A stretch of 64,000 nt of DNA from a virus. Taxonomy: Duplodnaviria > Caudoviricetes. The stretch spans positions 1 through 64,000 of the IMG/VR virus record IMGVR_UViG_3300045599_000040; one strand, given 5' to 3'. Position 1 is the first letter of the stretch. Each line of letters opens with the position of its first letter. This document shows positions 35,495 to 50,098 of the stretch, piece by piece. Made by a program: the position numbers and the translations under genes. The notes beneath the pieces are model-generated. The model was given only the letters and a program-made list of their open reading frames with translations. It searched no databases and had not been told where the DNA came from.

Positions 35495-35566
35495 TAGCTC
35501 CTTTGGTAAGAGATAAAATATAATTAAAATTATGATATTACAGAAAGCGAGTAGTGATATGTAGAA

Positions 35567-35845
35567 ATGAAATTACTATATTGCAAAAAATGCGGCGATG
35601 TATTTAATTTAAAATTTCACATCAAAAAATGTTATTGTGCTGAATCAGAAGGTTATTATATTGATGAAATAAATGCCAAATATAATGGTGACTGTATACC
35701 TATAGGAATAGATAATCATAGCTTTAGATCCGCAATAAACCTTCAGCCACAACAAGGGCTTGGTAAGAGATTTGATGCATTCGTTATTCCAAAAGAATGT
35801 GAAACATTTACGAAAGTTGAGATATTTAATGAAAATAAACTATAA
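35567..35845 (+). CDS. Cys-rich hypothetical protein
   Basis: CKKC, CYC. Confidence 0.65.
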   Translation: MKLLYCKKCGDVFNLKFHIKKCYCAESEGYYIDEINAKYNGDCIPIGIDNHSFRSAINLQPQQGLGKRFDAFVIPKECETFTKVEIFNENKL

Positions 35846-36050
35846 GGATTTTGAAATAGAAGTAAAAAGAGAACAATGCTTAGGTGGATGGTCAATGTTG
35901 TATTTTACAGTAATCACCCCAACTGGATATTATTTAATTGACACCTTTGAAGATTCAAGTGAAAAGGTAAGGGACAAAATTTCACAGTTAAAAGAAGTAG
36001 TCAATGACTATCTTGAGAATCCACAAAATTATGAAGATATTACTGATTAA
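35760..36050 (+). CDS. Hypothetical protein (true start probably the ATG near 35829)
   Basis: ORF track. Confidence 0.55.
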   Translation: MVRDLMHSLFQKNVKHLRKLRYLMKINYKDFEIEVKREQCLGGWSMLYFTVITPTGYYLIDTFEDSSEKVRDKISQLKEVVNDYLENPQNYEDITD

Positions 36051-36068
36051 TTTTAAGGACGTGATCTT

Positions 36069-36596
36069 GTGTACAAAGGTTGGATAAAAAGTAGTTTAGC
36101 ATTTCAAAAAACTATCGGGTTTTCTTATCAGGGCAAGCATCACCGCAGAAATAAATATTATAAATTCTTCAATGTCGAAGTGACAGATGACCAATACCTA
36201 GAAATGAAAAGTAAGTGGAAACATTTCAAGGAAGATATTCAATGGGATCTTCGTAAAAAGGTTGATGAGGCTTTTGGGATTAAAGAAGGAGATTTGACTG
36301 CCTCGATCTTAAATGGTAAAAGGTATTTTTTTAATAGGTATAGCAATTTAAATTATACTAGTAAGCTTCGTGAATGGACAAAAAACAATGGTCTTTATGT
36401 ATACAATAGAGAAAAGTATATTTATGAAGGTTATATAGCGCTTAAGGCACACATTGCACAGGATGGCAGCACTTGTTCGGAACATGAACAATATATTGAA
36501 AAGTTAACAAGAAGATGTGATTTTGATGAAAGTGATATTGATACTTATATAGATGATTTGTTAATTATAAAAAATAAATTGAAGGAATTTAAATAA
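36069..36596 (+). CDS. Hypothetical protein
   Basis: ORF track; stop codon overlaps a boundary palindrome. Confidence 0.6.
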   Translation: MYKGWIKSSLAFQKTIGFSYQGKHHRRNKYYKFFNVEVTDDQYLEMKSKWKHFKEDIQWDLRKKVDEAFGIKEGDLTASILNGKRYFFNRYSNLNYTSKLREWTKNNGLYVYNREKYIYEGYIALKAHIAQDGSTCSEHEQYIEKLTRRCDFDESDIDTYIDDLLIIKNKLKEFK

Positions 36597-36631
36597 GATT
36601 ACGATTTTAAACTGAAAGGATTTGTTCTTGA

Positions 36632-36847
36632 ATGGTTCTATATGCAATTAAAGTGTGCTACGGAGAGTATGAAGGTTATTTAAGCAGTTGGTGGAATCCA
36701 ACAAAAGATCTTAATGATGCAATGATCTTTATTGGCTTAAACGAAGCAAAAGAAATGTTAATTCGATATTCAGATACCTTTGATTATGAATCCACACCAA
36801 AGATAGATTTAGTTAAATGGGATGTAAAAGAAACTATAATAAGATAA
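36632..36847 (+). CDS. Hypothetical protein
   Basis: Flanked by boundary palindromes. Confidence 0.6.
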   Translation: MVLYAIKVCYGEYEGYLSSWWNPTKDLNDAMIFIGLNEAKEMLIRYSDTFDYESTPKIDLVKWDVKETIIR

Positions 36848-36879
36848 TATTATCATTTTAAGAGGAGGTGGGATGATAT

Positions 36880-37089
36880 ATGATTAAAACTCTAATTTCT
36901 AAATTGTATCACAAATATGTGTGTAAGCCTGATTTTGATCCGCATCAAACTTTGGAACATTTTCTGGAAATAGCCAAGGAGGAATATGAACTTCGCAAAT
37001 ATTCCACTATAGACACCTTTGAGAAATTGCAACTTATACAAAAAGCTGCTTTAATCAACTGGAAAATGAAAAACTGGGGAAGAAGATAA
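36880..37089 (+). CDS. Hypothetical protein
   Basis: RBS GGAGGTG; flanked by boundary palindromes. Confidence 0.6.
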   Translation: MIKTLISKLYHKYVCKPDFDPHQTLEHFLEIAKEEYELRKYSTIDTFEKLQLIQKAALINWKMKNWGRR

Positions 37090-37137
37090 AACCTTCGTTT
37101 TAACTGGTTTATAGAAATCAAATATAATATAATAGAG

Positions 37138-38412
37138 GTGAAATATAAAATGTCTATACTTCAATTAAAATCATCAAATCCTGAATTCTCATACATTATT
37201 AAAAAGAACCCAAACTCAGGAATGATTATTAAATCAATCCGCAAAGGTCATGCCTTCGGTTGGTATTCAAACGATGATACATACAACATCTATTTTAAAG
37301 ATGCAGAAAACGACATTTCATACAAAGAAGATAAAGATCAGCAATTTGAATACTTAAATGTATCAAGATATAACACCCCGTTATTTCCTTTGAATGCAAT
37401 ATCCGAGTTTTTAAAGTCAACATTAAACGAGCAAACTGAGCAAGATCAGAATGGTTATCTGAATGTCTTAACCGTGAACATGCTTCATATTGAACTGGTA
37501 AGGTACATTGATTTTTTTAAAAAGCATTACCCAGACTACAACTTTGAAACAAAACACTTAGCACATAAAAGCTATACCTTGACTATTTCAACAAATCAAT
37601 CTGTGTATAAGCTTCTAAATGTTGCAAGCTCATTGTTTATTTTCTTAGCTATGTTTGGCAAGGAGTATCTAGATGTATCCGACAATTTAATTGCAAAATA
37701 CATTCAATGTATTAATGTAACAGATGCTCCTTATTATATTCGCAGCCTATTCGTTAGAAACTTCCTATCAACAAAAGCAAGACTCAATAAGTTTAAAAAT
37801 GAGATTGAAGCTACAAACAAATACAAAATAGACTTTGAATTTGGAAATACAGCACAGCAACGTAGAAACTATATAGAAAAAATCATTTCATTTAACAAAC
37901 CTATTATTGATATTGGATGTGGCGAAGGCTTTTACATGTTTCCTTTTTCAAAAAGAATCAAAGATCACGAGTACCATGCAATTGACACCAATAAAGAAAT
38001 TGTTGAAATTCTAGAAGCAAAAATTAAGGCCAGAAACATAAAGAATGTTCTAACACATAAATCAGTTGAAGATTTTTTAGAGTCTTACCAAGAGGAACTT
38101 TCTGATGTAATTCTTACAGAGGTAGTTGAACATTTAGAGTTAGATGAGGCTAAAAAACTAATTAAAAAAGTTTATGACAACATAAACTTTGACAAGTTTA
38201 TTATCACAACACCGAATTTTGATTTCAATAAGTTCTACGATATTGACATCAGACATGATGACCACAAATGGGAAATGACATCTGCTGAATTCAAGGGTTG
38301 GATCTTGACTATGTTTCAAAACGATACTTGCAAATTGGACTTCTTTGGTATTGGAGATAGGGTAAATGGTATTCAAACAACTCAAGGAGTAATAATTAGA
38401 AAAGAGGGTTAG
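37138..38412 (+). CDS. hen1: Hen1 RNA 2'-O-methyltransferase with N-terminal ligase-activating domain
   Basis: N-terminal FSYIIKKNP; C-terminal DIGCGEG, EVVEHL, ITTPN, RHDDHKWEMT..EF. Confidence 0.88.
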   Translation: MKYKMSILQLKSSNPEFSYIIKKNPNSGMIIKSIRKGHAFGWYSNDDTYNIYFKDAENDISYKEDKDQQFEYLNVSRYNTPLFPLNAISEFLKSTLNEQTEQDQNGYLNVLTVNMLHIELVRYIDFFKKHYPDYNFETKHLAHKSYTLTISTNQSVYKLLNVASSLFIFLAMFGKEYLDVSDNLIAKYIQCINVTDAPYYIRSLFVRNFLSTKARLNKFKNEIEATNKYKIDFEFGNTAQQRRNYIEKIISFNKPIIDIGCGEGFYMFPFSKRIKDHEYHAIDTNKEIVEILEAKIKARNIKNVLTHKSVEDFLESYQEELSDVILTEVVEHLELDEAKKLIKKVYDNINFDKFIITTPNFDFNKFYDIDIRHDDHKWEMTSAEFKGWILTMFQNDTCKLDFFGIGDRVNGIQTTQGVIIRKEG

Positions 38413-38416
38413 GTTA

Positions 38417-40999
38417 ATGGAGATAAAAATTAAAGTACATACAATTTTTCTAATGGTGGGGGCAACTGAATCTGGCAAAACCACATTTGCAAAAGAAGTT
38501 CTTATTCCACAGTTGCGATTTAGTGATATAAATAAAAATTATATTTCTAATGTTCAATATATCTCATCTGATGAGATTAGGCAGGATATCCTTGGTTATA
38601 AATATGATAAACATGATCGAGTTATGCTTGAGTCAAGTGAACATGCATTTAATCTTCTTTTTGAAAAACTTAGAGCTGCAACATCTTTTCCCATCAATGC
38701 AGAGTTTGTTATTGTCGATACAACGGGGCTATCTGAAGAGTTCAGAAACAAAGTAATCCAAATTGCCAAAGAGAATCATTATAATATTGAATGTGTCTTG
38801 TTTGACTATAAGGATAGGAATGATTATTTCACCACTGAAACATCCAAAGCACTGATCAGTAATCATTTGACAAGACTGAGAAAAGAAGTAGTTGCGGATA
38901 TAACGAGAAAAAAATACAGCCAAATTCATAAAATTAGAAACAAGAATTTCTACGATCCAGTTAGCGGAAAAGCAAATTCTGAATATAAGGTCATTGTTGA
39001 AAACATGGGAGAGTATTTGAATCATATTCTTCCTACCCATAATAAGTATATTGCAATAGGCGATATTCATGAAAAAGTTGAGGAATTAAAATCTTTATTA
39101 ATCCAACATGGATTTAATATAGACAATAACAAACTAGAGCATAGCGATAAACGATATAGGATAATTCTTGTTGGCGATTATATTGATAAAGGCCATAATA
39201 CGAAAGAGACAATTGATTTTATTTATAACAACAAAGAATGGTTTTATATTGTACTAGGTAACCATGAAAACTTTGTATACAAATATATTAATGGCGAAAT
39301 ATCTAAAACAGAAGCATCGGTAATGAAATATTTTGACTCAATAAATGCCATCCAAGCAGATAAAGAACTAAAAGATAAATTTTTTGAACTTGTTAATATA
39401 TCTAAAAATTTTTACAGGCACATTGGAACACAAACGCCATCATTTTACGTAACACATGCCCCTGTTCAAAACAAATACCTTGGCAAGATTGACAACGTTT
39501 CACAGAGAAATCAAAGGAGATTTGCCATTGATAGAGATAAACCAGTTGAAGGGCAACTTCAGTTCTTAGTTGATGAAGCTGTATCAAATAATCCATTTCA
39601 TGTATTTGGACATGTGGCAGTTAAAGGAATTGCTCGAATAAAAAATAAGATCAACATTGATACTGGATGTGTTCATGGAAACTATCTCTCGTCCGTAACT
39701 CTAGACTCATGGAAACCTTTTTACAGAAAGCAAAAAACATCAGGGTTTTATATTGAGGAAGATTTGCCGCTACTGTTCCAAAAAGAAGAGAATGTTTCAT
39801 TGAACGATCTAAGCGATGACAACAAGAGAAGGTTAAGATATGCTCTTAAAAATAAAATCAACTTCATTTCAGGTACAATGTCTCCATCTGATAAAGATGT
39901 TGAATCGAATGACCTAGAATCATTAAAGAGTGGGCTAATGTATTACAAAAACAAGGGAGTGGACAGCGTAGTTCTACAACCAAAGTACATGGGGTCGCGC
40001 TGCAATATTTATCTGGATAGAAATATTGCAGAGTGCTTTGCTGTTAGCAGAAATGGATATAAGATAAAACAGGTTGATTTGACTCAAGTTTATGAAAAAT
40101 TACTTCAAAAATTTAGCCACTACATGAAAACTAATAATATCAAAACCTTTGTACTGGATGGAGAACTTCTTCCTTGGAGTATTTTAGGAAAGGGATTGAT
40201 TGAAAGGCAGTTTAGAACAATAGGTGTTGCATTAGAAACAGAGCTAAGTTTTTTAAAGCAGAATGATTTTGAAAATCAATTTCTAAGCTTGGTTGAGAAT
40301 TATAACAATAGCGGATTTGAAAAGGATAGCTTTAGCACATCCAACAGTGAACTGAGTAAAAAATACGGGAATACGAACTACCAAAATTATAAAAACGTAA
40401 AAGACATCGTAAACATTTATACTTCAGTAAGTGATCATTATGAAGCCTATCAAAATTATAAAAAGCAAGTTGAGCTATACGGCTTTGAAGGAGAGGCAAC
40501 ATATAAACCCTTCTCAATTCTGAAAGAAATTTATAATGATGGGAGCGAAAAGGTTCCCAACGAAAAAACATCTGAAATTTTTAATCTGGTCTCAGATGAT
40601 GATTCTCTTTTGATTGATTTTAATAAGAATCCAAAATTTTATGAAGAAGCTTTGCAATTCTATAACAATGTCACAACTGAGAAGAAGATGGAAGGTGTAG
40701 TTATCAAACCAGAAATAATGGTGGATGGAGTTGCTCCATATCTAAAGGTGCGTAATCCTAATTACCTAATAATAGTATATGGATACGACTATAAATTTCC
40801 TCATAAGTATGAGAAACTGATGGAACAAAAAAATATCAGAGGAAAGCTTGAAACATCGATCAAAGAATATAAGCTAGGAGAAAAGATGTTGTCATTCTGC
40901 TTGGATAGTATAGATGTTAACAACAAGGATTATATGCAGGTTGTAGCAAATATGCTTTTTGAAGTAGAGAAAGAAAGAGATATTGATCCAAGGCTGTAG
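38417..40999 (+). CDS. pnkp: Pnkp: polynucleotide kinase - phosphoesterase - RNA ligase
   Basis: GATESGKTT; GDIH, GDYIDKG, GNHE, FGH; ligase motifs QPKYMGSR, DGEL, EGVVIKP, KVR. Confidence 0.9.
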   Translation: MEIKIKVHTIFLMVGATESGKTTFAKEVLIPQLRFSDINKNYISNVQYISSDEIRQDILGYKYDKHDRVMLESSEHAFNLLFEKLRAATSFPINAEFVIVDTTGLSEEFRNKVIQIAKENHYNIECVLFDYKDRNDYFTTETSKALISNHLTRLRKEVVADITRKKYSQIHKIRNKNFYDPVSGKANSEYKVIVENMGEYLNHILPTHNKYIAIGDIHEKVEELKSLLIQHGFNIDNNKLEHSDKRYRIILVGDYIDKGHNTKETIDFIYNNKEWFYIVLGNHENFVYKYINGEISKTEASVMKYFDSINAIQADKELKDKFFELVNISKNFYRHIGTQTPSFYVTHAPVQNKYLGKIDNVSQRNQRRFAIDRDKPVEGQLQFLVDEAVSNNPFHVFGHVAVKGIARIKNKINIDTGCVHGNYLSSVTLDSWKPFYRKQKTSGFYIEEDLPLLFQKEENVSLNDLSDDNKRRLRYALKNKINFISGTMSPSDKDVESNDLESLKSGLMYYKNKGVDSVVLQPKYMGSRCNIYLDRNIAECFAVSRNGYKIKQVDLTQVYEKLLQKFSHYMKTNNIKTFVLDGELLPWSILGKGLIERQFRTIGVALETELSFLKQNDFENQFLSLVENYNNSGFEKDSFSTSNSELSKKYGNTNYQNYKNVKDIVNIYTSVSDHYEAYQNYKKQVELYGFEGEATYKPFSILKEIYNDGSEKVPNEKTSEIFNLVSDDDSLLIDFNKNPKFYEEALQFYNNVTTEKKMEGVVIKPEIMVDGVAPYLKVRNPNYLIIVYGYDYKFPHKYEKLMEQKNIRGKLETSIKEYKLGEKMLSFCLDSIDVNNKDYMQVVANMLFEVEKERDIDPRL

Positions 41000-41058
41000 T
41001 ATGGGGAGAATTACTCCCTCCATATATCTCAAATCTTATTGAGAAAGAAGGAGAATAA

Positions 41059-41868
41059 ATGAAAAAAATTATAAAAAAACTAAAGCATCAAAAATCGACC
41101 ATTGAATCACAAGGTCACAAGGTAGCCTATATTTGTTTATATGGTTCTCAAAATTATGGACTTGATATCTATACAGACGACTATCAATCAGATCTTGACA
41201 TGAAAGCTATTTTAATTCCCACTCTTGATGATTTAATAAATAACAACAAACCAATTTCCACAGTTATTGAAACAGAGTGGGGAGAGTGTGACCTAAAAGA
41301 TATTCGCAGCTATTTTGAAACTTTACTTAAGGGCAACCCTGCGTATCTCGAAACACTTTTTACAAAATACTATATTGTTGATGATGGTTTTGAAACAGAA
41401 TTCAAAGAAATCCTATCCTTTAAAGATGATTTGGTTCACACACTTAGAGCACAAATGATTCGTGCAATGTATGGAATGATGCTAGAAAAAGAAAAAGCAT
41501 TGTGTCACCCATACCCATCAATTGCTCACAAGATTGAAAAATTTGGCTATGATGGTAAACAAGCTCATCATGTTTTAAGAATGTGGCTAATGATGAAAGA
41601 CTATTTCAAGTTCAAAAAGCCTTTGAGTGACTGTTTCTATCCCTCATCAGAATACAAACAGTCACTGATTAACCTAAAACTTAGCATTCCTTCTTTAGAT
41701 TATGTTAAAAATAATGTTCAAGAAATTATGACTAAAGCCAACCACCTCAGAGATGAAGTGATTGAAAGCACCAATGAAAACACATTTGATTATTCGATTA
41801 AAAATGATTTCATCAACTTATCACGCAAAATTATTAAAGATAAAATAATTAAAGATATAAGGGGATAA
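41059..41868 (+). CDS. Pol-beta superfamily nucleotidyltransferase (RlaP-like), copy 1
   Basis: GSQNYGL...SDLD; GNPAYLETLF; YDGKQAHHVLR. Confidence 0.75.
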   Translation: MKKIIKKLKHQKSTIESQGHKVAYICLYGSQNYGLDIYTDDYQSDLDMKAILIPTLDDLINNNKPISTVIETEWGECDLKDIRSYFETLLKGNPAYLETLFTKYYIVDDGFETEFKEILSFKDDLVHTLRAQMIRAMYGMMLEKEKALCHPYPSIAHKIEKFGYDGKQAHHVLRMWLMMKDYFKFKKPLSDCFYPSSEYKQSLINLKLSIPSLDYVKNNVQEIMTKANHLRDEVIESTNENTFDYSIKNDFINLSRKIIKDKIIKDIRG

Positions 41869-41872
41869 TCTG

Positions 41873-42852
41873 ATGAAACAACCGAAATTTATTATGATGT
41901 GTGGACTTCCAGCAAGCTCAAAATCCACCTTCGCCCAAGAGTTAGCAAAAGTTGAGAATGCTATTGTTCTATCGTCTGATCAGATGCGATTAGAATTATA
42001 TGGAGATGAAACAGATCAAGAGCATAATGGTGAAATATTTAATGAAATATACAGAAGAGCTATTAGACATTTGAAAAATCAGAAAAGCATCATCATTGAT
42101 GCAACAAATATTGCCTCGAAAAAAGAATGAATGCATTGGAACGTCTAAATTTTAATAAAGATATTCTAAAGGAAGTCTACTATTTTAGTGTGTCCCTAGA
42201 AGAATGTGTAAGGAGAGATCGAGATAGAAATAGGACAGTTGGTAGCAAAGTGATTGACAAGATGTATCGTCAATTGCAAATCCCAACCTATGCTGAGGGA
42301 TGGAGTAAAATTCATTTAATACATCAATCCAATGCTAATTATAGTCTAGCAATTAGAGAATACTTTGATAATACAATAAACTATGCAGCAAATTATGAGT
42401 ACATATTTGAAAATGTTTTTTGTGATATTCCTCCATTCAGCAAAATCAGAGACTTGCCACATGATTCAAAATATCACTCCTTTAGCGTGAGTAGGCATAC
42501 ATATCATGTCTGGCTAGAGATACAACAAAAATATGATGATCCTGTTTTGATTTGGGCTGCGCTACTTCATGACGTGGGAAAGGCGCACTGTAAAGAGTTT
42601 AAAGAAGGCGCAAAATACGCTCAATTCTTGGGGCATGAATTTGTAAGTGGGCAATTGGCATGTCAATTTTTAAATTCTCTTGGCTACGATGATGATTTTA
42701 TTTTAAAAGTGGTTGAGCTAGTTCAACTACATATGAGGCTGATGGGCGCAGGAAATAGTGAAAAAGCAATCAACAAATTAAAAAGTTTTGTTGGCGAAGA
42801 AACTTTCCATAGGCTACAAGCACTTTATGACGCTGATTTAAAAGCAAAATGA
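41873..42852 (+). pseudogene. P-loop polynucleotide kinase-HD phosphohydrolase fusion, frameshifted at an A6 run (42119-42124)
   Basis: GLPASSKST, SSDQMR, DATN in ORF1; adding one A reads through into ORF2 with HDSKYH, LLHDVGK, GHE, HM, DAD. Confidence 0.75.
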
Positions 42853-42891
42853 ACTAAATAAAATAATTCTTTTAACGGAAGGAGAAGTAAA

Positions 42892-43086
42892 ATGAGAAAG
42901 GGACAAACAGTTTTTGATTTTGAAGTTGGAGAGCTGGTGGAAGTTATTTCAACAAGTCATCCCCAATTATATGGAGAACTTGGAGTTATTATTGATAAAC
43001 AGGATGGAATCCACGGTGGAAGTTTGAGACTGTCATTCAATAGTGGTGAATACATTACATGGATGCCTGTTGAAGATGTTAGTTAG
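42892..43086 (+). CDS. Small SH3/KOW-like protein
   Basis: FEVGELVEV...GELGVII. Confidence 0.55.
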   Translation: MRKGQTVFDFEVGELVEVISTSHPQLYGELGVIIDKQDGIHGGSLRLSFNSGEYITWMPVEDVS

Positions 43087-43127
43087 ATTTAGATAATATC
43101 AAACTGAAATATATAAAGGAGAAATAA

Positions 43128-44042
43128 ATGAAAACAAAAACTATCAAATCTATTTTATCTAAAGTACACAAACAATTTGTTGAATCAATTGAAGATGAAC
43201 GTGTTAGAGAACTTGTAAAGAAAAACTCAATTATCACAGGTGGAAGTATTGCTTCAATGCTTATGAAGGAGAAAGTAAATGATTACGATTACTATTTTAC
43301 GAATAAGGAAACGGTAGAAGCAGTTGCTCATTACTATGTAAATAAATTTAATCAACTAAATCCAGACAAGAAGATCAAACCATCAGTTGTTGTTGAAGGT
43401 GACCGAGTAAGAATTAGAATACAATCTGCTGGAATTATATCAGAGGGAGTGGATGATGAAAATTATCAATATTTTGAAATGATTCCAGATCCAACAGTAG
43501 CAGAATCGTATATTCAAGACATTATGGATAAACCAGTCGATGATGAGCAAGATGTATCGAAGCCTAAGCACCGACCTGTATTCCTATCAGATAATGCAAT
43601 TACTTTATCAGGTAAAATTCAACTTGTCATTCGCTTTTATGGCTCACCAGAACAGATCCACGAAAACTATGATTTTGTTCATGCAATGTCGTGGTGGAGA
43701 TCAGAGGATGGACATTTGGAAACACCGAACAAGGCATTACTTGCAATGATGACTAAGGAACTTGTTTATAATGGTTCAAAATATCCATTGGCATCTATTA
43801 TTCGAGCAAGAAAGTTCATTCAACGTGGATGGAGCATCAATGCAGGACAATACTTGAAAATGGTGCTGCAATTGGGTGAAATGGACTTGAGTGACCCTAA
43901 AGTACTTGAAGAACAACTTACTGGAATGGATGTTGCTTATTTTCATGAGATTTTAAGTAAGTTACGAGAGCGAATGGAAGATGACACAGAGTTTAAAGTA
44001 ACAAGTACATATTTAATTGAAATTATTGATCGATTATTTTAA
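43128..44042 (+). CDS. Nucleotidyltransferase-like protein (GG...DxD)
   Basis: ITGGSIASML...NDYDYYF; FDFVH-like YDFVH. Confidence 0.6.
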   Translation: MKTKTIKSILSKVHKQFVESIEDERVRELVKKNSIITGGSIASMLMKEKVNDYDYYFTNKETVEAVAHYYVNKFNQLNPDKKIKPSVVVEGDRVRIRIQSAGIISEGVDDENYQYFEMIPDPTVAESYIQDIMDKPVDDEQDVSKPKHRPVFLSDNAITLSGKIQLVIRFYGSPEQIHENYDFVHAMSWWRSEDGHLETPNKALLAMMTKELVYNGSKYPLASIIRARKFIQRGWSINAGQYLKMVLQLGEMDLSDPKVLEEQLTGMDVAYFHEILSKLRERMEDDTEFKVTSTYLIEIIDRLF

Positions 44043-44048
44043 GGCTAG

Positions 44049-44783
44049 GTGATACACTCAATGACACGAACCTTAGTAGTATCAGACATACATGGCTGTT
44101 ATGATGAATTTAATGAGTTACTAAAAACCACCCAATACAACCCAGAAGAAGATAAATTAATATTACTTGGCGACTATTGCGATAGAGGATTGAAAAGCAA
44201 GCAAGTTATCGAGCAAATAATGAATCTTGTAAGTGAATGGGGCATAGTCGCCATTCGTGGAAACCACGACCAGATGTTTTTAAATGCACTGTATAAAGAC
44301 GAGGACTATATATTTTTGCATAACGGTGGAATACATACAATCGAAAGCTATGTTGGATATGATTGGTTTGTTGATTATCAAGGTTTTGATTTCGATCAAT
44401 ATGTAAATGCGAAAGATTTTATCAAGCAACATTATGCCCACCACATTAAATTTTTAAGAAGTCTTCCGGTTTATCATGAGGACGATGACTACATTTACGT
44501 TCATGCAGGACTAAATCCGCTATATGAAAATTGGAAAGAGCAACCAACTGAGAATTTTCTTTGGATTCGAGATTTATTTATTGATAGCCCAACCGTGGTT
44601 GATAAAACTGTGATCTTTGGTCATACTCCAACTATTAACATGCAAGAGACTGAGGGCATATGGTATGGCGGCGACAAAATTGGAGTAGATGGGGGATGTG
44701 TTTTTGGATTTAACATGCTTTGTTTAGAAATATCGGAAAAGGGATATAAGCAATACGCTGTTGAAAGGAGAGTTGGGAACTGA
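44049..44783 (+). CDS. Calcineurin-like metallophosphoesterase
   Basis: SDIHG, GDYCDRG, GNHD, VHAG, FGHT, DGGC. Confidence 0.9.
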   Translation: MIHSMTRTLVVSDIHGCYDEFNELLKTTQYNPEEDKLILLGDYCDRGLKSKQVIEQIMNLVSEWGIVAIRGNHDQMFLNALYKDEDYIFLHNGGIHTIESYVGYDWFVDYQGFDFDQYVNAKDFIKQHYAHHIKFLRSLPVYHEDDDYIYVHAGLNPLYENWKEQPTENFLWIRDLFIDSPTVVDKTVIFGHTPTINMQETEGIWYGGDKIGVDGGCVFGFNMLCLEISEKGYKQYAVERRVGN

Positions 44784-45597
44784 CCTATGTTAAAGATCTA
44801 ACTGGTTTAAAATTTGGAAAATTAACCGTTGTTAAGAGATTAGAGAATAATAAATATGGGGTAGTGTCGTTTGGGAGTGTAGGTGTGAATGTGGCAATAT
44901 AAAACAGGCAACCACAGGCAATCTAAATGCGGGGAATATAATTTCTTGTGGATGCATTAGGGGTGGAGTAAGAAAAACAAAACACAACTTAAGCAAACAT
45001 AAATTATATGATATTTATATTTCCATGAAGCAAAGATGTTATAACGAAAACAATCCCAGATATGATGATTATGGTGGTCGAGGCATACGTATTTGTAATG
45101 AATGGTTAAATGAAGAGAATGGATTTTTATCATTCTATAACTGGTCTATAAAAAATGGGTATAAAAAGGGTCTTACGTTAGATAGAAGAGATAACGATGG
45201 GAATTATGAACCTTCTAACTGTAGATGGGTAACACATAAAATTCAGCAAAATAACAAAAGAAATTCGGTATTAATTAATATTGACGGTGTGGAAAAGACT
45301 CCATCACAATGGAGCGAGATCACAGGTTTGAGTGCTAAAATTATATTGGATAGGTTCAATAATGGTTTTAATGGTGATGATATTGTTTCAACCGAAATAG
45401 ATCAGTACGATCTTAAAATAGGTCAATCTGGACATCGTGGAATTGTTTGGGATGGTTCTAGATGTAGTTGGCAAGTCTATTATGGGGTCAATAAAGAGAG
45501 AAGTTATGTGGGAAGATATAAGAAATTAACTAACGCAATAAAAGCTCAAGAAATTTTTGTAATTACAGGAGAAAAAGTAAAAGAAAAAGACATGTAA
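44780..45597 (+). pseudogene. Homing-endonuclease-like gene (DLTG..FGKLTV / WECRCECGN type), frameshifted at a G4 run near 44857
   Basis: CTG start after RBS; MTYVKDLTGLKFGKLTVV shifts into WECRCECGN..SCGC, continuous with ORF 45025-45597 (YGGRGIRIC, TLDRRDNDGNYEPSNCRW). Confidence 0.7.
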
Positions 45598-45627
45598 TGT
45601 GAATTATAATGTAAAGGGGTAAAATAT

Positions 45628-46305
45628 ATGAATAATCGACCAAAAGCAATTAACAGCTACAAAAACCTATGTTTTAAATGCTTGAATAAAAAGAAGATTA
45701 CAAAATTCTCGTTATACAGAGGGTATGGTAGTAGTTTTGATAATTATCGTACATATTTACAAATTTGTGATGATTGTAAGCCAACTAATATTAAAGCATG
45801 GTTCGATGAAGAACCGGAAATGCAAGATAATTTTTATGAAGAATATAAGCATGAGAAAGATATTACTGATCTTGTAGACTCGTTCCCCTTGGAAGGACAG
45901 GAATTATTCTGGAACCGATGTGCATATGGTGCTCTTGCAGATTCAATGGGAAGTCAAGATTGGATTGATATGAAGTTAGGGATATTGCCTGATGAAAAGT
46001 ATAAAGAATATGGTATGTATTCACCAACTGAAAAAAGGTTATATGAAGAAAGATATCCAACATGTAATCATCCCATTAATATAGTGCATAGCGATGAATC
46101 AAAAGGAAGCAGGTGCGTTTTTGGGGCAAGTGGTAAATATGGGCAGGAAGTAGGCTTGAATATCTCTGAAGAGTGTAGCAAATGTCAACGCTACACTCCA
46201 AGAAATGAACCAATTAAAGACATGTCATATGATGAATATAAATTGTATCATGCGTATTACATAGGCAAACTAAATTATTTTAATTTGAAGGATAGGTTTG
46301 AGTAA
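45628..46305 (+). CDS. Cys-rich hypothetical protein
   Basis: CFKC, CDDC, CSKC. Confidence 0.6.
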   Translation: MNNRPKAINSYKNLCFKCLNKKKITKFSLYRGYGSSFDNYRTYLQICDDCKPTNIKAWFDEEPEMQDNFYEEYKHEKDITDLVDSFPLEGQELFWNRCAYGALADSMGSQDWIDMKLGILPDEKYKEYGMYSPTEKRLYEERYPTCNHPINIVHSDESKGSRCVFGASGKYGQEVGLNISEECSKCQRYTPRNEPIKDMSYDEYKLYHAYYIGKLNYFNLKDRFE

Positions 46306-47041
46306 AAAGGGGGATATTTGCTTGAATGAATTCTGGAATGAGCGACTGATTCTAAAAGTGATTGCAGGAAGCCATAGCTATGGAACCAACACTCCTGAAA
46401 GCGATATGGATTTTAGGGGAGTTTGCATCCCACCAATTGAGAATTTGCTTGGATTGGACAATAAATTTGAGCAGTATGAAACAAAAGATCCTGACAGTGT
46501 AATTTATTCATTAAAAAAATTTGTAAGATTAGCATTACAGAATAACCCTAACATTTTAGATGCTTTATTTGTAGATGATGAGCATGTTGTGTATGCAAAT
46601 GAGTATGGAAGAGAATTGCGTGAATTAAAATATTCTTTCCTAAGCAAGAGGGTGTTTCATACTTACGGTGGATATGCACACTCAAGACTTAAAAACTTAA
46701 CCGAAAAAGGAAAGAATCCCATTGGTTATAAAAAAGAATTGATTGATAAGTACGGATTCGATAGCAAGGATGCCAGTCATCTTGTTAGGTTGATGCGAAT
46801 GGGGATAGAAATTCTTAGGGATGGAGAAGTGAATGTGTACAGACCTGACAGAGAAGTATTGTTAAAGGTAAGAAATGGAGAATTTACTTTAGATGAAATC
46901 AAAGAAGAGTACGAATGGTTAAATGAACAGCTAAACAAGGCATATAACGAGTCAAAACTTCCAGATCAGCCAGATTACAATAAAATTAATGGTTGGTTAA
47001 TTGATACGCACAGAAAGTCAATGGAATGGAATATTAATTAA
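46298..47041 (+). CDS. Pol-beta superfamily nucleotidyltransferase (RlaP-like), copy 2
   Basis: GSHSYGTNTPESDMDFRG; NNPNILDALF; FDSKDASHLVRL. Confidence 0.8.
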   Translation: MSKKGDICLNEFWNERLILKVIAGSHSYGTNTPESDMDFRGVCIPPIENLLGLDNKFEQYETKDPDSVIYSLKKFVRLALQNNPNILDALFVDDEHVVYANEYGRELRELKYSFLSKRVFHTYGGYAHSRLKNLTEKGKNPIGYKKELIDKYGFDSKDASHLVRLMRMGIEILRDGEVNVYRPDREVLLKVRNGEFTLDEIKEEYEWLNEQLNKAYNESKLPDQPDYNKINGWLIDTHRKSMEWNIN

Positions 47042-47061
47042 AATGTAAAATATAAAGGAAA

Positions 47062-47325
47062 ATGAGTGAAGGTATATATTATATGGTGAAAATGTACAGG
47101 TTAAAATGCATAAAAGAGCTAGACTCCTTTTTCAAAGAGGAATGTACATATTACGGACGAAAATCAAAGTCAGGAATGATCATGGCAAAAGATGAATTCG
47201 ATAAGTGGTGGATAATCGAAGATTATAAAATGCACACGTACAATATATTAAACAACCATTTTATAATCTTCGATGAATTTTTTGTGCGAAATCATAAGGA
47301 AGCAATCGGCTATAAATCACAATAA
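47062..47325 (+). CDS. Hypothetical protein
   Basis: ORF track. Confidence 0.5.
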   Translation: MSEGIYYMVKMYRLKCIKELDSFFKEECTYYGRKSKSGMIMAKDEFDKWWIIEDYKMHTYNILNNHFIIFDEFFVRNHKEAIGYKSQ

Positions 47326-47359
47326 ATGAGATATTTTAAAGGAACTGAGGAGTGAGTAC

Positions 47360-47842
47360 ATGACAAAAGAAATCGAACGTAAATTTTTAATCAAAGATTT
47401 TCCATTTGGAGTGTTTGAAAATAATAAAAAAATCAAACCAACTGAATTCATCACTCAATCCTATATTAGCATTACCGACCAATCTGAGGTTAGAGTTAGA
47501 GAGTCGTGGACTAAAACTGGGGAAAGTAAACATGTATTGACATATAAAAACGGAAATGGATTAGTGAGAGGTGAATCAGAAATTGAAATTGACGGAGACA
47601 CTTTTAAAAACCTACTTAAGTCTAGCGAACCGATTACAAAAGTAAGACATTACTTTATGTTAAATGGTGTTCCGATATCAATTGATACTTACACTGGTAA
47701 ATTATACGGTCTTGTTGTTGCAGAGGTAGAGTTCAAAAGTGAAGGAGAGGCATTAAGTTATGTTCCACCTGATGAAGCTTTTAGCGATGTGACTGATGAC
47801 AAAAAGTATAAGAATAAAAATTTATGGCTGTCAATTCAGTAA
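47360..47842 (+). CDS. CYTH/triphosphate tunnel metalloenzyme, copy 1
   Basis: EIERKFL, EVRVR, TYK, ITKVR, IDTY, AEVEF. Confidence 0.88.
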   Translation: MTKEIERKFLIKDFPFGVFENNKKIKPTEFITQSYISITDQSEVRVRESWTKTGESKHVLTYKNGNGLVRGESEIEIDGDTFKNLLKSSEPITKVRHYFMLNGVPISIDTYTGKLYGLVVAEVEFKSEGEALSYVPPDEAFSDVTDDKKYKNKNLWLSIQ

Positions 47843-47893
47843 ATGAAACCCGATAAAAACATACTTTTAAAAAGTCAACGGGAGGTGTGAGTC

Positions 47894-48373
47894 ATAGGAA
47901 AAGAAATTGAGCGTAAATTTTTACTGAAAGAATTTCCATTTAGTATTTTTGAAAGCTATAAAAAAACAATGCCATCTGAGCATATCAAGCAATCATATAT
48001 TAGTCTTACTGATCAATCAGAGGTTAGAATCAGAGAAATATGGAGTAAAAATGGGAAAAAATTTTATTTAACGTATAAAAACGGAACTGGATTAATTAGA
48101 GAAGAATTAGAAATCGAGATTGATGAAGATGTCTTTAAAAACCTATTAAAACTCAGTGAACCAATTACAAAAGTAAGGCATTATTTTGTATTAAATGGTT
48201 CACCACTATCAATTGATACTTATACTGGTAAGTTATATGGACTTGTGATTGCAGAAGTGGAGTTCAAGAGCGAAGAAGATGCACTAAATTATTCTCCACC
48301 AATGGAAAACTTCATCGAAGTCACGAATGAAAAGAAATATAAAAATAAAAATTTGTGGAAGTCAATTCAGTGA
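47894..48373 (+). CDS. CYTH protein, copy 2 (probable ATA start at 47894)
   Basis: RBS GGAGGTG then ATA GGA AAA GAA ATT GAG CGT AAA (EIERKFL), in frame with ORF 47969. Confidence 0.8.
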   Translation: MGKEIERKFLLKEFPFSIFESYKKTMPSEHIKQSYISLTDQSEVRIREIWSKNGKKFYLTYKNGTGLIREELEIEIDEDVFKNLLKLSEPITKVRHYFVLNGSPLSIDTYTGKLYGLVIAEVEFKSEEDALNYSPPMENFIEVTNEKKYKNKNLWKSIQ

Positions 48374-48412
48374 GCATAAAGCCACAACAATATTATAAAG
48401 AAGGGGAGACAC

Positions 48413-48499
48413 ATGAATTGGACAAAAAATGAAAAAAGGTTTTATGGAGTAGTATGTGCAGTCTTAGGATTCATCGCAGGTTATTTAATAAATAACTAA
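48413..48499 (+). CDS. 28-aa single-TM peptide
   Basis: RBS AAGGGG; MNWTKNEKRFYGVVCAVLGFIAGYLINN. Confidence 0.55.
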   Translation: MNWTKNEKRFYGVVCAVLGFIAGYLINN

Positions 48500-48509
48500 A
48501 TACATAAAG

Positions 48510-48713
48510 GTGGGTTTGAATAGAATGGATTTTCATACAATTGAAGGTTATGCCGAAACAATATCAAATGGAATACTGGGTAATTTAAATACGAAGCTAA
48601 TAGCTAAAGAAAACATAATGAATTTAATTGGTTTATCATGCTTGAATTACTCACATAATGAGAAATTCAAAAAAGAAATGGATGCTTATTTGGCGCTAAA
48701 AGGCTTTTTATAA
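48510..48713 (+). CDS. Hypothetical protein
   Basis: ORF track. Confidence 0.45.
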   Translation: MGLNRMDFHTIEGYAETISNGILGNLNTKLIAKENIMNLIGLSCLNYSHNEKFKKEMDAYLALKGFL

Positions 48714-48751
48714 AATACCAATTTTAAAACAACTAGGGAGGATGCATTTAT

Positions 48752-48940
48752 ATGTTAATTACATACGAATTAAGCAAGTATGAAATAGAATTTCTTATTC
48801 TTAATGGATTGTCTGAATTAGGTATTAAAGCAGATGAGGTTATCTTCGAAGATTCAAAATGCAAAGTAATTTGTAATGATGATATTTATGGAATGGATGA
48901 ATTTTTAAAAAGTAAAAGTAAAAAGGTGATTAAATCATGA
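48752..48940 (+). CDS. Hypothetical protein
   Basis: RBS GGAGG. Confidence 0.55.
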   Translation: MLITYELSKYEIEFLILNGLSELGIKADEVIFEDSKCKVICNDDIYGMDEFLKSKSKKVIKS

Positions 48941-49182
48941 CAAAATATTACGCTACAGTTAAAACAGAAATTGGGAAAATCATCTTAACGGTTAGAGCTA
49001 TCGATGAAGTTCAAGCAGAAGAGAAGTTAAAAGAACAATTTAATTTTGATTCAATCATAAAAATAAGTAAAACAGTTCCTAGCCAATATTATGGAATTAC
49101 TAGTTCATCCCTTAATGGTATGTTGAGAGTGTTTGACTACTCTAAAACAACTAAAAGATATAATAATTGGGTTATGAACTAA
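48937..49182 (+). CDS. Hypothetical protein
   Basis: ATGA overlap with the previous gene. Confidence 0.6.
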   Translation: MTKYYATVKTEIGKIILTVRAIDEVQAEEKLKEQFNFDSIIKISKTVPSQYYGITSSSLNGMLRVFDYSKTTKRYNNWVMN

Positions 49183-49195
49183 AATATTTTAAAAA

Positions 49196-49807
49196 ATGAA
49201 GAGGAGTGTAATATTGGATCTAAAACTAACATCAAAGATTCCACCTTCGGTCAATCATTATCTTGGATACCGAGCAATACCAAAAAAGAAAAAAGATGAA
49301 AAAACAGGCAAATGGAAAACAGTACATATAGTTGTTGCATATCATACAAAAGAAGCAAAAGAGTTTATTGAATATTTTACTAAATATGCAAAGGAACAAG
49401 TTGAAAAACAAAATTGGGAAATTGAACAAACGAGAGACATACATCACTACGCAGATTGTGTTTATTACTTTCCCAGAACTAATATGGATGATCAAAATTA
49501 CCCAAAAGTGAGTTCTGACTGTTTAAATGGAATAGCATACATAGACGATAGCAAAGTTCTGTTTCGCACAAATCGCATATATTACGATTCAGTCAACCCA
49601 AGAGTAGAAATCAAAATTCATGCTGTTGATTATAGGGGTATTTTTAATAGCCAAGAACACCTTGATCAATTTGAAGATAAATGTAAGACATGTAAAAGAT
49701 ACAGTAGAAATTGCTCAATCCTTAGAAAAGCTAAAGAGGGAAGGATTCAAGAGGAGATAGATGATCAGTTTGTTTGTAGTAAGTATCAATATAAAAAAGA
49801 GCAATGA
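49196..49807 (+). CDS. rusA: RusA-like Holliday junction resolvase with C-terminal Cys cluster
   Basis: PPSVNHY; DDQNYPKVSSDCLNGIAYIDDSKV; NPRVEI. Confidence 0.8.
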   Translation: MKRSVILDLKLTSKIPPSVNHYLGYRAIPKKKKDEKTGKWKTVHIVVAYHTKEAKEFIEYFTKYAKEQVEKQNWEIEQTRDIHHYADCVYYFPRTNMDDQNYPKVSSDCLNGIAYIDDSKVLFRTNRIYYDSVNPRVEIKIHAVDYRGIFNSQEHLDQFEDKCKTCKRYSRNCSILRKAKEGRIQEEIDDQFVCSKYQYKKEQ

Positions 49808-49860
49808 GAATGAATAATATCCACATACATTAATCAAACTAAACAATGAGGTGCAAATAC

Positions 49861-50001
49861 TTGAAAGAAGATACATATCATACTAAAACAATTAAGATGC
49901 CAGACGGAGGCACGCTAGTTATTAATGGAGATCCATCAATTGAGAACTGCCAAACTTTTATTAAAATCCTCGTTGATGCAGATCGAGCAAGTAAAACGTA
50001 A
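49861..50001 (+). CDS. 46-aa hypothetical protein upstream of the integrase
   Basis: RBS GAGGTG, TTG start; MKEDTYHTKTIKMPDGGTLVING... Confidence 0.55.
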   Translation: MKEDTYHTKTIKMPDGGTLVINGDPSIENCQTFIKILVDADRASKT

Positions 50002-50003
50002 TC

Positions 50004-50047
50004 AAGAAGGCTGCAATGGTATTCATCATTGCAGCCTTCTTTGTTTT
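50004..50047 (+). terminator. Intrinsic terminator separating the early arm from the integrase
   Basis: 15-bp perfect stem AAGAAGGCTGCAATG/CATTGCAGCCTTCTT followed by TGTTTT. Confidence 0.8.
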
Positions 50048-50098
50048 GCACTATTATTAATGTGTGAACAATAAACGAACCAAGGAGGTGAGCTTTTT

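Follow-up and report, generated by a model that had tools for sequence, protein, structure and literature searches.

A Hen1–Pnkp-containing RNA-end repair gene cluster in a distant SPbeta-like phage

Bacterial Pnkp1–Rnl–Hen1 repairs ribotoxin-cut RNA (PMC4411300), and RlaP extends the 3′ ends of damaged RNA by one or two NMPs, making tRNA functional again (PMC12776372). RNA-repair clusters that combine RlaP with ligases, kinases and phosphoesterases have already been catalogued in phages, jumbo phages included, and such gene sets are proposed to undo tRNA cleavage (PMC7824862); PNKP together with Hen1 has been reported from phage XacN1 (PMC5852040). [quoted passage not shown] Gad2 (Gabija anti-defence 2) of Bacillus phage SPbetaL7 has experimentally validated anti-Gabija activity (Yirmiya et al., 10.1101/2023.05.01.538930).

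We analysed a stretch of 64,000 nucleotides of viral DNA (the window), in which an 11-kb RNA-end repair gene cluster is carried by a distant SPbeta-like Bacillus-type phage. With the phage clusters, the XacN1 pair and the RlaP biochemistry all published, the original prediction of an undescribed system is not supported; the cluster is an elaborate variant of known phage counter-defence and not a new kind of system. It resembles bacterial Pnkp–Hen1 in its two-gene operon, its three-module Pnkp, a Hen1 with an N-terminal domain and an SAM methyltransferase, and all catalytic motifs, but the pair is phage-borne and belongs to a divergent Paenibacillaceae-type clade. The best solved relatives of its Hen1 and ligase domain are in the Capnocytophaga gingivalis Pnkp1–Rnl–Hen1 heterohexamer (4XRP/4XRU; PMC4411300), to whose proteins both are closer by sequence than to those of Cth or Ava. 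In Capnocytophaga, however, the ligase is a separate protein, whereas here it is fused to the kinase–metallophosphoesterase, and the Capnocytophaga healing enzyme is T4-like (∼30% identical to T4 Pnkp), with genes far from hen1. Phage-borne ligase, kinase, phosphoesterase and RlaP genes are what the cluster shares with the known phage sets (T4 Pnkp/Rnl1/NrdC.11, jumbo phages, XacN1, Vibrio phages RYC and sm033). The carrier here differs in being a distant SPbeta-like Bacillaceae phage with further repair genes packed directly beside Hen1–Pnkp, and it uses a classical fused Pnkp, whereas RYC and sm033 have Rnl and a Hen1–kinase fusion.

Setting and gene content

The element is a phage, and its predicted SPbeta-like affiliation is supported, at a distance, by a YorL-type DNA polymerase 42% identical to that of SPbeta and by a replication module syntenic with SPbetaL7. 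All island genes lie on the same strand (Table 1). There is no strong intrinsic terminator inside 37138–48373; 3′ of the island, the + strand has no strong intrinsic-terminator-like site before the hairpin at 50004–50041, and the only two other + strand terminator-like sites in 34181–52000 are weak 5-bp hairpins, one before the island (34990–35003) and one after the recombinase gene (51627–51640). A promoter-like site is located at 37100–37128, such sites being no commoner than chance. A short way 3′ of the cluster come the genes for RusA and a serine recombinase. No tRNA genes or Rfam RNAs were found in the window, a profile search of the whole 72-kb contig found no stand-alone RNA ligase, and both RlaP matches of the contig fall within the island. 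Except for Pnk-HD, the second CYTH copy and the HNH insert, all ORFs are undamaged and retain full catalytic motifs and their ribosome-binding sites.

Table 1. Coordinates of the features in the window.
Feature	Position	Strand	Basis or remark
Hen1: N-terminal ligase-activating domain and 3′-terminal RNA 2′-O-methyltransferase	37150..38412	+	Pfam and motifs
Pnkp, 860 aa: 5′-OH kinase, 2′,3′-phosphoesterase (dinuclear metallophosphoesterase), adenylyltransferase/ligase	38417..40999	+	Pfam and motifs
NT1, divergent RlaP-like Pol-beta nucleotidyltransferase	41059..41868	+	Pfam RlaP and phrog_388 matches
Pnk-HD end-healing gene (P-loop 5′-kinase and HD phosphoesterase), broken	41873..42852	+	Pfam AAA_33 E 2e-15, HD E 6e-9
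64-aa ORF	42892..43086	+	Ribosome-binding site GGAGAAG (good)
Gad2-family nucleotidyltransferase, 304 aa	43128..44042	+	Pfam PF26128 (precomputed); Atlas feature score 0.99
Metallophosphoesterase (MPE), lambda-phosphatase/ApaH-like	44049..44783	+	Pfam Metallophos E 1.8e-17; phrog_246 E 1.4e-62
HNH homing endonuclease	45025..45597	+	phrog_3377 E 4e-48, phrog_374 E 8e-46
Cys-rich 225-aa protein, no structural relatives	45628..46305	+	Stop overlaps RlaP gene start
RlaP-family RNA 3′-end nucleotidyltransferase	46298..47041	+	Pfam RlaP E 5.7e-28, full length
87-aa ORF	47062..47325	+	ORF call only
CYTH/triphosphate-tunnel metalloenzyme, copy 1	47360..47842	+	Pfam CYTH 29.1 bits (cut-off 23.2); phrog_6660
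CYTH copy 2, tandem paralogue, non-canonical ATA start	47894..48373	+	Aligned with copy 1 (DNA and protein)
Strong bidirectional terminator hairpin	50004..50041	.	17-bp stem, 7 GC pairs, T tail

The Hen1–Pnkp pair

The full two-domain Hen1 and three-domain Pnkp that had been predicted were both confirmed. The Hen1 ORF is open from a GTG at 37138, and its probable start is the ATG at 37150 behind a GAGGTG ribosome-binding site; the gene-caller product has 420 residues. Hen1 contains a Hen1_N domain (Pfam, E 2.6e-88) and an SAM methyltransferase domain, with the motifs DIGCGEG (residues 258–264), TEVVEHL (327–333) and RHDDHKWEM (372–380). It matches Capnocytophaga Hen1 (4xrp_C) over its full length (E 3e-42) and is ∼55% identical to Paenibacillus and Brevibacillus Hen1. 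Pnkp matches Pfam AAA_33, Metallophos and PNKP_ligase (E 1e-30), with a P-loop at residues 15–23, metallophosphoesterase motifs GDIHE (215), GDYIDKG (253), GNHE (281) and GH (398) and the ligase motif KYMGS at 523. Its ligase half matches Capnocytophaga Rnl (4xru_B) with E 1.5e-63 and the Cth Pnkp ligase with E 3e-11, and the protein is 53–56% identical to bacterial Pnkps adjoining Hen1.

The pnkp gene begins 4 nt after hen1, and the bacterial relatives have the same gene order, with one bacterial locus arranged as RtcB–RlaP–Hen1–Pnkp. Judged by its sequence, the pair is a bacterial-type operon ∼55% identical to Paenibacillaceae copies and is apparently intact; as the identity to chromosomal Paenibacillus operons is of this order, the two genes were probably acquired together. 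They occupy the slot in which two sibling phages hold two different stand-alone RNA ligases; in this cluster the bacterial pair has taken the place of a simpler ligase. Hen1 is present in 5 of 50,697 phage records. Both proteins score far under the NCBIfam equivalog cut-offs (TIGR04074/TIGR04075), so that biochemical equivalence with the Cth and Ava enzymes would be an extrapolation.

End-healing enzymes and nucleotidyltransferases

The predicted kinase–HD fusion has both of its domains but is not a single ORF, because the reading frame shifts by 1 nt within an A6 run (42119–42124), splitting the gene into 41873–42130 and 42127–42852; the prediction of redundant end-healers is weakened to that extent. 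Both pieces align collinearly with intact single-ORF genes (318–339 aa) in four related phages (L007, L008, L010 and L099), and the HD domain is similar to the one in CCA-adding enzymes (TIGR02692, E 1.4e-16). The frameshift is confined to the phage that acquired Pnkp, which is consistent with redundancy; a sequencing error in the homopolymer could explain it as well. A kinase–HD phosphoesterase fusion directly after an RNA ligase is found in Runella and in Tsamsa-like Bacillus phages, the latter with the same Pnk-HD directly 3′ of the ligase. The domain order here, kinase then HD, is opposite to that in Runella, and the frameshifted gene is preceded by Pnkp and an RlaP-like gene rather than by a stand-alone ligase. 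The calcineurin-like phosphoesterase is present as predicted; this MPE is ApaH/PrpE-like by NCBIfam and also matches the Pnkp phosphatase module (E 2.8e-15).

Of the two RlaP-like enzymes that had been proposed, the downstream one is a full-length match (about 97–98.7 bits), with relatives in 1773 phage records. The upstream one, NT1, matches RlaP weakly and partially (29 bits, cut-off 23; profile positions 12–159 only); it also matches phrog_388 nucleotidyltransferase (E 2e-18) and has a GS...DxD motif at residues 29–48. The third predicted enzyme, a DxD nucleotidyltransferase, is one, and is reassigned to the Gad2 family (PF26128), with the motif GGS...NDYDYYF. Its AF2 model (pLDDT 78.5) has a head and neck like those of class II CCA-adding enzymes and poly(A) polymerases; VIA scores the model at Z ∼10 against CCA-adding enzymes and against E. 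coli PAP I. SPbetaL7 Gad2 aligns with it by hhalign (probability 97.7%, E 1.6e-12), is matched by the Gad2-like family HMM at E 5e-21, and shares the Pfam family, the nucleotidyltransferase motif and ∼200 alignable residues. The two proteins are, however, only ∼21% identical; the window protein (304 aa, compared with 400 aa) lacks the C-terminal ∼190 residues, and its gene lies outside the syntenic gad locus, amid RNA-repair genes.

We consider it very unlikely that these enzymes process DNA ends in phage repair, recombination or replication. HD-Pnk-type and Pnkp-type enzymes do heal DNA ends in vitro as well (Munir and Shuman 2017, as cited in PMC6097658), the RusA and recombinase genes are close by, and the PF09414 ligases adjoining Gad2-like genes in other contigs are in replication modules. 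Against this, Hen1 is an RNA 3′-ribose 2′-O-methyltransferase whose substrate hydroxyl DNA lacks, RlaP prefers RNA (PMC12776372) and the Pnkp ligase family seals RNA.

Conservation in sibling phages and proposed function

Phage L010 carries, in order, Rnl, NT1 (67% identical), an intact Pnk-HD, an 87-aa ORF, the Gad2-like gene (87%), MPE (66%), RlaP (72%) and the serine recombinase (75%). In L099 a gene with an OB-fold and an RNA ligase domain overlaps an intact Pnk-HD, followed by the 87-aa ORF, the Gad2-like gene (88%), MPE (68%) and the 225-aa ORF. The siblings' 87-aa ORF is unrelated to the 64-aa ORF in its place here. Pnk-HD, a small ORF, the Gad2-like gene and MPE are thus kept together behind three ligase types, Hen1–Pnkp and those of the two siblings. 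The predicted grouping of all nine genes into one system does not survive this comparison: only the block RlaP-like nucleotidyltransferase, Pnk-HD, Gad2-like nucleotidyltransferase, MPE and RlaP recurs (the 225-aa ORF is counted outside it, although the L099 copy adjoins MPE), and Hen1–Pnkp, the CYTH pair and the HNH gene were not found in any of the relatives identified.

These observations make it probable that the island is a modular phage cluster that repairs breaks in RNA, with tRNA the likeliest target. It belongs to a hypervariable accessory arm of this distantly SPbeta-like phage of Bacillaceae. Cutting by a host ribotoxin would leave 2′,3′-cyclic-phosphate and 5′-OH ends, which the kinase and metallophosphoesterase modules of Pnkp would heal; in the siblings, Pnk-HD and the stand-alone MPE may do so instead. 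The RlaP-type enzymes, and possibly the Gad2-family CCA-adding-like enzyme, would restore nucleotides lost from the 3′ end. Hen1 would 2′-O-methylate the 3′ nucleotide and activate the Pnkp ligase domain, which would then seal a junction resistant to re-cutting. The gene make-up is textbook for the RNA-repair counter-defence originally predicted (Hen1–Pnkp, RlaP nucleotidyltransferases, end-healing enzymes); the substrate, the order of steps and the role against anticodon nucleases we infer.

L095 shares the backbone (a 680-aa gene, 76%; RusA, 74%) and has only the Gad2-like gene, without repair genes, which marks the arm as a cargo hot spot and makes neighbourhood alone weak evidence. A mosaic anti-defence island is accordingly a tentative alternative, to which we give a minor but appreciable likelihood: the genes would adjoin only because the arm collects accessory cargo, Hen1–Pnkp and perhaps RlaP alone would repair RNA, the Gad2-like protein would block Gabija-type defence as its validated SPbetaL7 namesake does (10.1101/2023.05.01.538930), and the ApaH-like MPE and CYTH enzymes would act on small nucleotides. 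It is consistent with the solitary L095 gene, with the neighbourhoods of 50 other viral contigs with Gad2-family genes (RlaP in 3, RNA ligase in 4, an HD gene in 3), with the unrelated contexts in which homologues of the 225-aa ORF and CYTH genes occur and with other anti-defence genes (Acb2/Tad1-like, Apyc1-like) on the relatives' contigs. The linkage of Pnk-HD, Gad2-like gene and MPE behind three different ligases argues against it, as do the divergence, truncation and non-syntenic location of the Gad2-like protein relative to SPbetaL7 Gad2 and its predicted tRNA/RNA 3′-end nucleotidyltransferase fold. For the suggested making or destroying of nucleotide signals we found no evidence, with 0 PADLOC matches and no consistent context for CYTH homologues in other phages. 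The best reading is a modular heal–patch–seal cassette for tRNA or other RNA that shares an accessory hot spot with unrelated cargo.

Such cargo probably includes the 225-aa ORF and the tandem CYTH genes. Both predicted CYTH enzymes are present, the first with an EIERK motif at residues 4–8, but the start of the second had been misplaced: from ATG 47969 the product has no ExExK motif and no Pfam match, and this start was rejected, whereas from ATA 47894 it has 159 residues, EIERK, a Pfam CYTH match (31.2 bits), 72.5% identity to copy 1 and an equal ribosome-binding site and spacing. The HNH gene, a selfish element, has inserted between MPE and the 225-aa ORF, which adjoin in L099. Decaying cargo with little present function, as the Pnk-HD frameshift, the ATG-to-ATA change and the HNH insertion might indicate, is extremely improbable for the cluster, given the intact state of the other ORFs; the frameshift may come from misreading of the homopolymer, and ATA is a permitted weak start codon.

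The HNH gene, the 225-aa ORF and the two small ORFs, neither of which has a Pfam or PHROG match, were absent from the original list. No counterpart in the PDB was found for the 225-aa protein (best Foldseek E 0.8; best VIA-wide Z 2.9); its AF2 model has a pLDDT of 91.9, and its 66 homologue clusters, every one from Bacillaceae phages or prophages, share eight invariant Cys residues.

Hen1 and Pnkp of the island

The repair island encodes a complete Hen1 and a complete Pnkp, and the coordinates of these and the other features are collected in the table below. Hen1 has an N-terminal ligase-activating domain (Pfam Hen1_N, 295.9 bits, E 2.6e-88) followed by methyltransferase domains that form a C-terminal SAM-dependent 2'-O-methyltransferase with the metal ligands ExxEH ... 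H; the motifs DIGCGEG, TEVVEHL and RHDDHKWEM are conserved with respect to 4xrp_C and 3jwi. Pnkp (860 aa) consists of kinase, dinuclear metallophosphoesterase and ligase domains (Pfam AAA_33, Metallophos and PNKP_ligase) and carries the motifs GxxxxGKT (residues 15-22), GDxH (215), GDxxDxG (253), GNHE (281), GH (398) and, with the lysine that is adenylylated in the ligase module, KYMGS (523). The two genes lie 4 nt apart on a common strand, and the order Hen1 then Pnkp is also found in the bacterial loci L005 and L006; one bacterial locus has the layout RtcB-RlaP-Hen1-Pnkp. Both proteins have their nearest homologues on chromosomes of Paenibacillus, Brevibacillus and Aneurinibacillus, with 53-59% identity and an unchanged gene order. 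Matches to the NCBIfam equivalog profiles are partial and do not reach the cut-offs (73.8 bits versus 340 for Hen1, TIGR04074; 188 versus 750 for Pnkp, TIGR04075). By these scores the clade is a divergent one, far below the equivalog cut-offs, and the annotation of its bacterial members goes no further than class I SAM-dependent methyltransferase.

Among solved structures, the Capnocytophaga Pnkp1-Rnl-Hen1 system is the closest relative of both the window Hen1 (E 3e-42) and the ligase domain of Pnkp (E 1.5e-63), whereas the Clostridium and Anabaena proteins are more distant (E about 1e-11). The healing half of Pnkp is of the classical kinase-metallophosphoesterase type, unlike its Capnocytophaga-like ligase domain, and in a comparison of the N-terminal half with 4xrp/4xru no chain other than Rnl was matched. 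The architecture also differs, as the Capnocytophaga system has a separate Rnl and a T4-like Pnkp1, whereas the window ligase is fused to the kinase-metallophosphoesterase in a single ORF.

Hen1 was found in five of 50,697 phage records, all from large phages of Vibrio, Xanthomonas and Stenotrophomonas, with about 30% identity. The PNKP and Hen1 pair of one of these, XacN1, has already been published (PMC5852040). Vibrio phages RYC and sm033 combine Rnl with a Hen1-kinase fusion, an arrangement that amounts to the Capnocytophaga-type Pnkp1-Rnl-Hen1 system in fused form. In both phages the Rnl-type ligase comes first and is followed by Hen1 fused to polynucleotide kinase; the fusion carries only the annotation 'polynucleotide kinase'. 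No RlaP was found in the three IMG/VR contigs with Hen1. The original prediction presented the island as the strongest candidate for an undescribed system; since the concept and all of the families have been published (PMC7824862, PMC5852040, PMC12776372, PMC4411300), it is not one. The window documents Hen1-Pnkp, the 'repair and immunise' system of RNA repair, in a Bacillaceae phage.

Coordinates of features in the window and in the compared contigs
Record	Feature	Positions	Remark
Window	Genes collinear with the SPbetaL7 replication module	1825-7194	
Window	YorL-like DNA polymerase, first ORF	8974-10431	
Window	YorL-like DNA polymerase, second ORF	10892-13555	
Window	680-aa DUF8224 protein, 128-aa partner and hairpin	31674-34181	
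Window	Strong hairpin	34151-34181	
Window	Repair island	37138-48373	
Window	Hen1	38412	Stop
Window	Pnkp	38417	Start
Window	RlaP-like NTase	41059-41868	
Window	Frame change in Pnk-HD	42119-42124	A6 run
Window	304-aa Gad2-like NTase	43128-44042	
Window	225-aa ORF	45628-46305	
Window	RlaP	46298-47041	
Window	CYTH copy 2	47894	ATA start
Window	First strong terminator, + strand	50004-50041	
Window	Protein with three CapR-homology repeats	51775-52473	
L095	YpsA (SLOG) gene and weak PTH2-like fragment	4642-5301, 8616-8762	
RYC (L098)	Rnl-type ligase, Hen1-kinase fusion	5835-9154	
sm033 (L106)	Rnl-type ligase, Hen1-kinase fusion	4709-8178	
L057	RlaP, Gad2-family gene	1856-3742	
L096	OB-fold and HD protein, Gad2-like gene	9037-10924	

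Accompanying enzymes of the island

The predicted content of the island (Hen1, Pnkp, nucleotidyltransferases, metallophosphoesterase and two CYTH genes) was recovered, with corrections: the fusion of kinase and HD domains is interrupted and the second CYTH gene starts at an ATA codon. Behind Hen1 and Pnkp the order is a weak, partial RlaP-like nucleotidyltransferase, Pnk-HD, a 64-aa ORF, the 304-aa nucleotidyltransferase, a metallophosphoesterase of the lambda-phosphatase type, an HNH endonuclease, the 225-aa ORF, RlaP, an 87-aa ORF and the two CYTH genes. Both domains of Pnk-HD, a P-loop kinase and an HD phosphoesterase, are present with their motifs, but the frame changes within a run of six adenines, so that the window does not encode them as a single polypeptide. 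When the gene is read with one extra A, the sequence continues as ..DATNIASKK followed directly by RMNALERL.. and matches intact homologues of 318-339 aa. Programmed frameshifting was considered and rejected: the orthologue in the sibling phage contig L010 has no A-run at this site (AAG CGT AGA), and intact relatives read ..SKRR... The break is therefore a mutation or a homopolymer error and not programmed slippage. The HD domain resembles that of bacterial CCA-adding enzymes (TIGR02692, E 1.4e-16). Tsamsa-like Bacillus phages encode the same Pnk-HD behind an RNA ligase, an order that parallels Runella HD-Pnk, in which the 5' end of the ORF is overlapped by the upstream ligase ORF (PMC6097658). 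No close Pnk-HD relatives were found in IMG/VR.

RlaP matches PF10127 over its full length (98.7 bits) and contains the GS...DxD motif. The RlaP-like nucleotidyltransferase has a Pol-beta motif and scores 29 bits against a cut-off of 23 for the same profile, covering only its N-terminal 60%. Addition of one or two NMPs to RNA 3'-OH ends is known for Pseudomonas RlaP enzymes only (PMC12776372). A sequence search of the PDB returned nothing useful for the RlaP-like or the Gad2-like protein. Both CYTH proteins exceed the Pfam cut-off of 23.2 bits (29.1 and 31.2 bits) and contain EIERK. For copy 2, the ExExK motif and the Pfam match are regained only when translation is read from the ATA codon, which has a ribosome-binding site and spacing like those of the ATG of copy 1. 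No repair context was seen for CYTH homologues in phages, and Iyer et al. read phage CYTH homologues as NTP-degrading enzymes.

The 225-aa ORF encodes a Cys-rich protein with eight invariant cysteines. Its homologues form about 66 clusters, every one of them from phages or prophages of Bacillaceae, and also occur outside repair contexts. The AlphaFold model is confident, with a pLDDT of 91.9, and no structural relatives were found by Foldseek or by exhaustive VIA-align comparison with 48,161 PDB chains (best Z 2.9). The protein may represent an undescribed zinc-binding fold.

Sibling phages and the probable exchange of the sealing module

The IMG/VR viral contig from which the window is taken is 72,157 bp long and, according to CheckV, 44% complete; the window covers its first 64 kb. 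The + strand carries genes from position 1 to 52.5 kb and the tail genes are on the - strand. The DNA polymerase resembles YorL (42% identity to the polymerase of SPbeta and its relatives) and a block of genes is collinear with the replication module of SPbetaL7; therefore, the phage is a distant SPbeta-like phage, as had been proposed. The 680-aa gene, which is 68% identical to TsarBomba, pointed to Herelleviridae, but it is widely shared, and this assignment was rejected on the same polymerase and replication synteny. The pair formed by the 680-aa DUF8224 protein and a 128-aa partner is conserved, with 68-76% identity, both in Herelleviridae (TsarBomba, Bcp1 and others) and in the SPbeta-like siblings. 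The variable arm is bounded on its upstream side by this pair, which a strong hairpin follows. About 460 nt separate the two polymerase ORFs; the gene may be split, or the gap may reflect an intron or an intein. Genes for RusA and a large serine recombinase lie downstream of the island, and the protein with three CapR-homology repeats directly follows the recombinase.

No relatives of the island were found at the DNA level in the phage collection, and close relatives for a neighbourhood survey were located through the 304-aa nucleotidyltransferase. L010 contains an Rnl gene (PF09414), the RlaP-like gene (67% identity), an intact Pnk-HD, an 87-aa ORF, the 304-aa nucleotidyltransferase (87%), the metallophosphoesterase (66%), four small ORFs and RlaP (72%), with a serine recombinase (75%) further on. 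L099, a second sibling, contains a gene with an OB-fold and an RNA-ligase domain that overlaps an intact Pnk-HD, then an 87-aa ORF, the nucleotidyltransferase (88%), the metallophosphoesterase (68%) and the 225-aa ORF (65%), with RusA further on. The third, L095, shares the backbone (680-aa gene 76%, partner 73%, RusA 74%), and from the island it has the nucleotidyltransferase (85%) only. In place of the repair genes, its accessory arm has a gene for YpsA (SLOG) and a fragment with weak similarity to PTH2.

The block of Pnk-HD, small ORF, nucleotidyltransferase and metallophosphoesterase recurs in L010 and L099, whereas Hen1-Pnkp, the HNH gene and the CYTH pair are private to the window phage among the relatives found. 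The block travels with three different sealing modules, and the slot occupied by a ligase in the siblings is filled in the window by Hen1-Pnkp. Pnk-HD is broken only where Pnkp, with its own kinase and phosphatase, is present. The HNH gene interrupts the junction between the metallophosphoesterase and the 225-aa ORF, which is intact in L099. The island arm is a cargo hot spot. No strong terminator lies inside the island, the first on the + strand being found downstream of it; the predicted transcription unit extends over 37.1-50.0 kb. No tRNA genes or Rfam RNAs were detected within the window, and PADLOC defence models returned only generic HD and methyltransferase noise.

The island is probably a modular phage cluster that heals, patches and seals RNA (tRNA), in which a simple ligase has given way to a Hen1-Pnkp operon of bacterial origin, at a hot spot shared with unrelated cargo. 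In the main rival reading, which appears less likely, the neighbourhood is shared cargo space only and the Gad2-like, metallophosphoesterase and CYTH genes each work on their own; the two readings overlap. The repair-cluster reading gives a route of arrival, with Hen1-Pnkp taking the place of a plain RNA ligase within a pre-existing repair cassette. Three siblings with three sealing modules also constitute a clean natural experiment on what Hen1 methylation adds during infection. Beyond this exchange and the placement of the Gad2-family gene, the parts and the concept were already known.

The Gad2-family nucleotidyltransferase

The 304-aa nucleotidyltransferase is a member of the Gad2 family (PF26128) according to precomputed Pfam assignments. 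Homology to the experimentally validated Gad2 of SPbetaL7 extends across roughly 200 residues (hhalign probability 97.7%, E 1.6e-12), and the family HMM matches SPbetaL7 Gad2 with an E of 5e-21, but the identity is only about 21%. The SPbetaL7 protein has 400 residues, of which residues 8-211 can be aligned; its C-terminal region of about 190 residues is absent from the window protein. The loci also differ: gad2 of SPbetaL7 lies before the replication genes, whereas in the window the gene follows them at a distance of about 40 kb.

In VIA comparisons, the AlphaFold model of the 304-aa protein (pLDDT 78.5) aligned with 3h3a, 3aql and 9kma at Z 9-10.4 across 170-188 residues, a match to the head and neck seen in class II CCA-adding enzymes and in the poly(A) polymerase of E. 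coli. Foldseek matched it to the same enzymes with a probability of 1.0 but low TM scores (0.33-0.38). The alignment covers enzyme residues of about 5-224 only and does not extend to the tRNA-binding body and tail of CCA-adding enzymes, and the sequence gave no Pfam match at E <= 0.01, PF01743 included.

The placement of a family with anti-defence activity within an RNA-repair cassette, together with its CCA-adding-enzyme-like fold, provides a testable idea for how Gad2 acts, and whether Gad2-family nucleotidyltransferases act on RNA ends is the most interesting question to arise from the island. In its boldest form, the idea is that Pnk-HD, the small ORF, the Gad2-family nucleotidyltransferase and the metallophosphoesterase constitute an unrecognized 'heal-and-patch' cassette serving any RNA ligase (Rnl, OB-Rnl or Hen1-Pnkp), with Gad2-family enzymes acting as RNA or tRNA 3'-end nucleotidyltransferases. 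We regard this as a long shot. If it were correct, it would give the first mechanistic lead for Gad2, whose mechanism against Gabija is described as still unknown (PMC12904381), and would suggest that RNA-end damage matters in Gabija/OLD-type immunity.

A general tie between the Gad2 family and RNA repair is not supported as a rule by 50 other IMG/VR contigs with a family member. RlaP is present in three of them (adjacent in one) and an HD gene in three (near in none); a PF09414 RNA ligase is found in four, in three cases within 4 kb but beside replication genes. Conversely, no Gad2-family gene was found in the 6-10 kb flanks of Hen1 at nine other loci (three IMG/VR contigs, XacN1, RAS14, RYC, sm033 and two bacterial loci). 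In L057, a 204-kb IMG/VR contig from an unrelated large phage, a Gad2-family gene has RlaP as its immediate upstream neighbour. In another relative, L096, a protein with an OB-fold (tRNA_anti-codon) and an HD domain ends 1 nt before a Gad2-like gene, and this contig also carries an Acb2/Tad1-hairpin gene.
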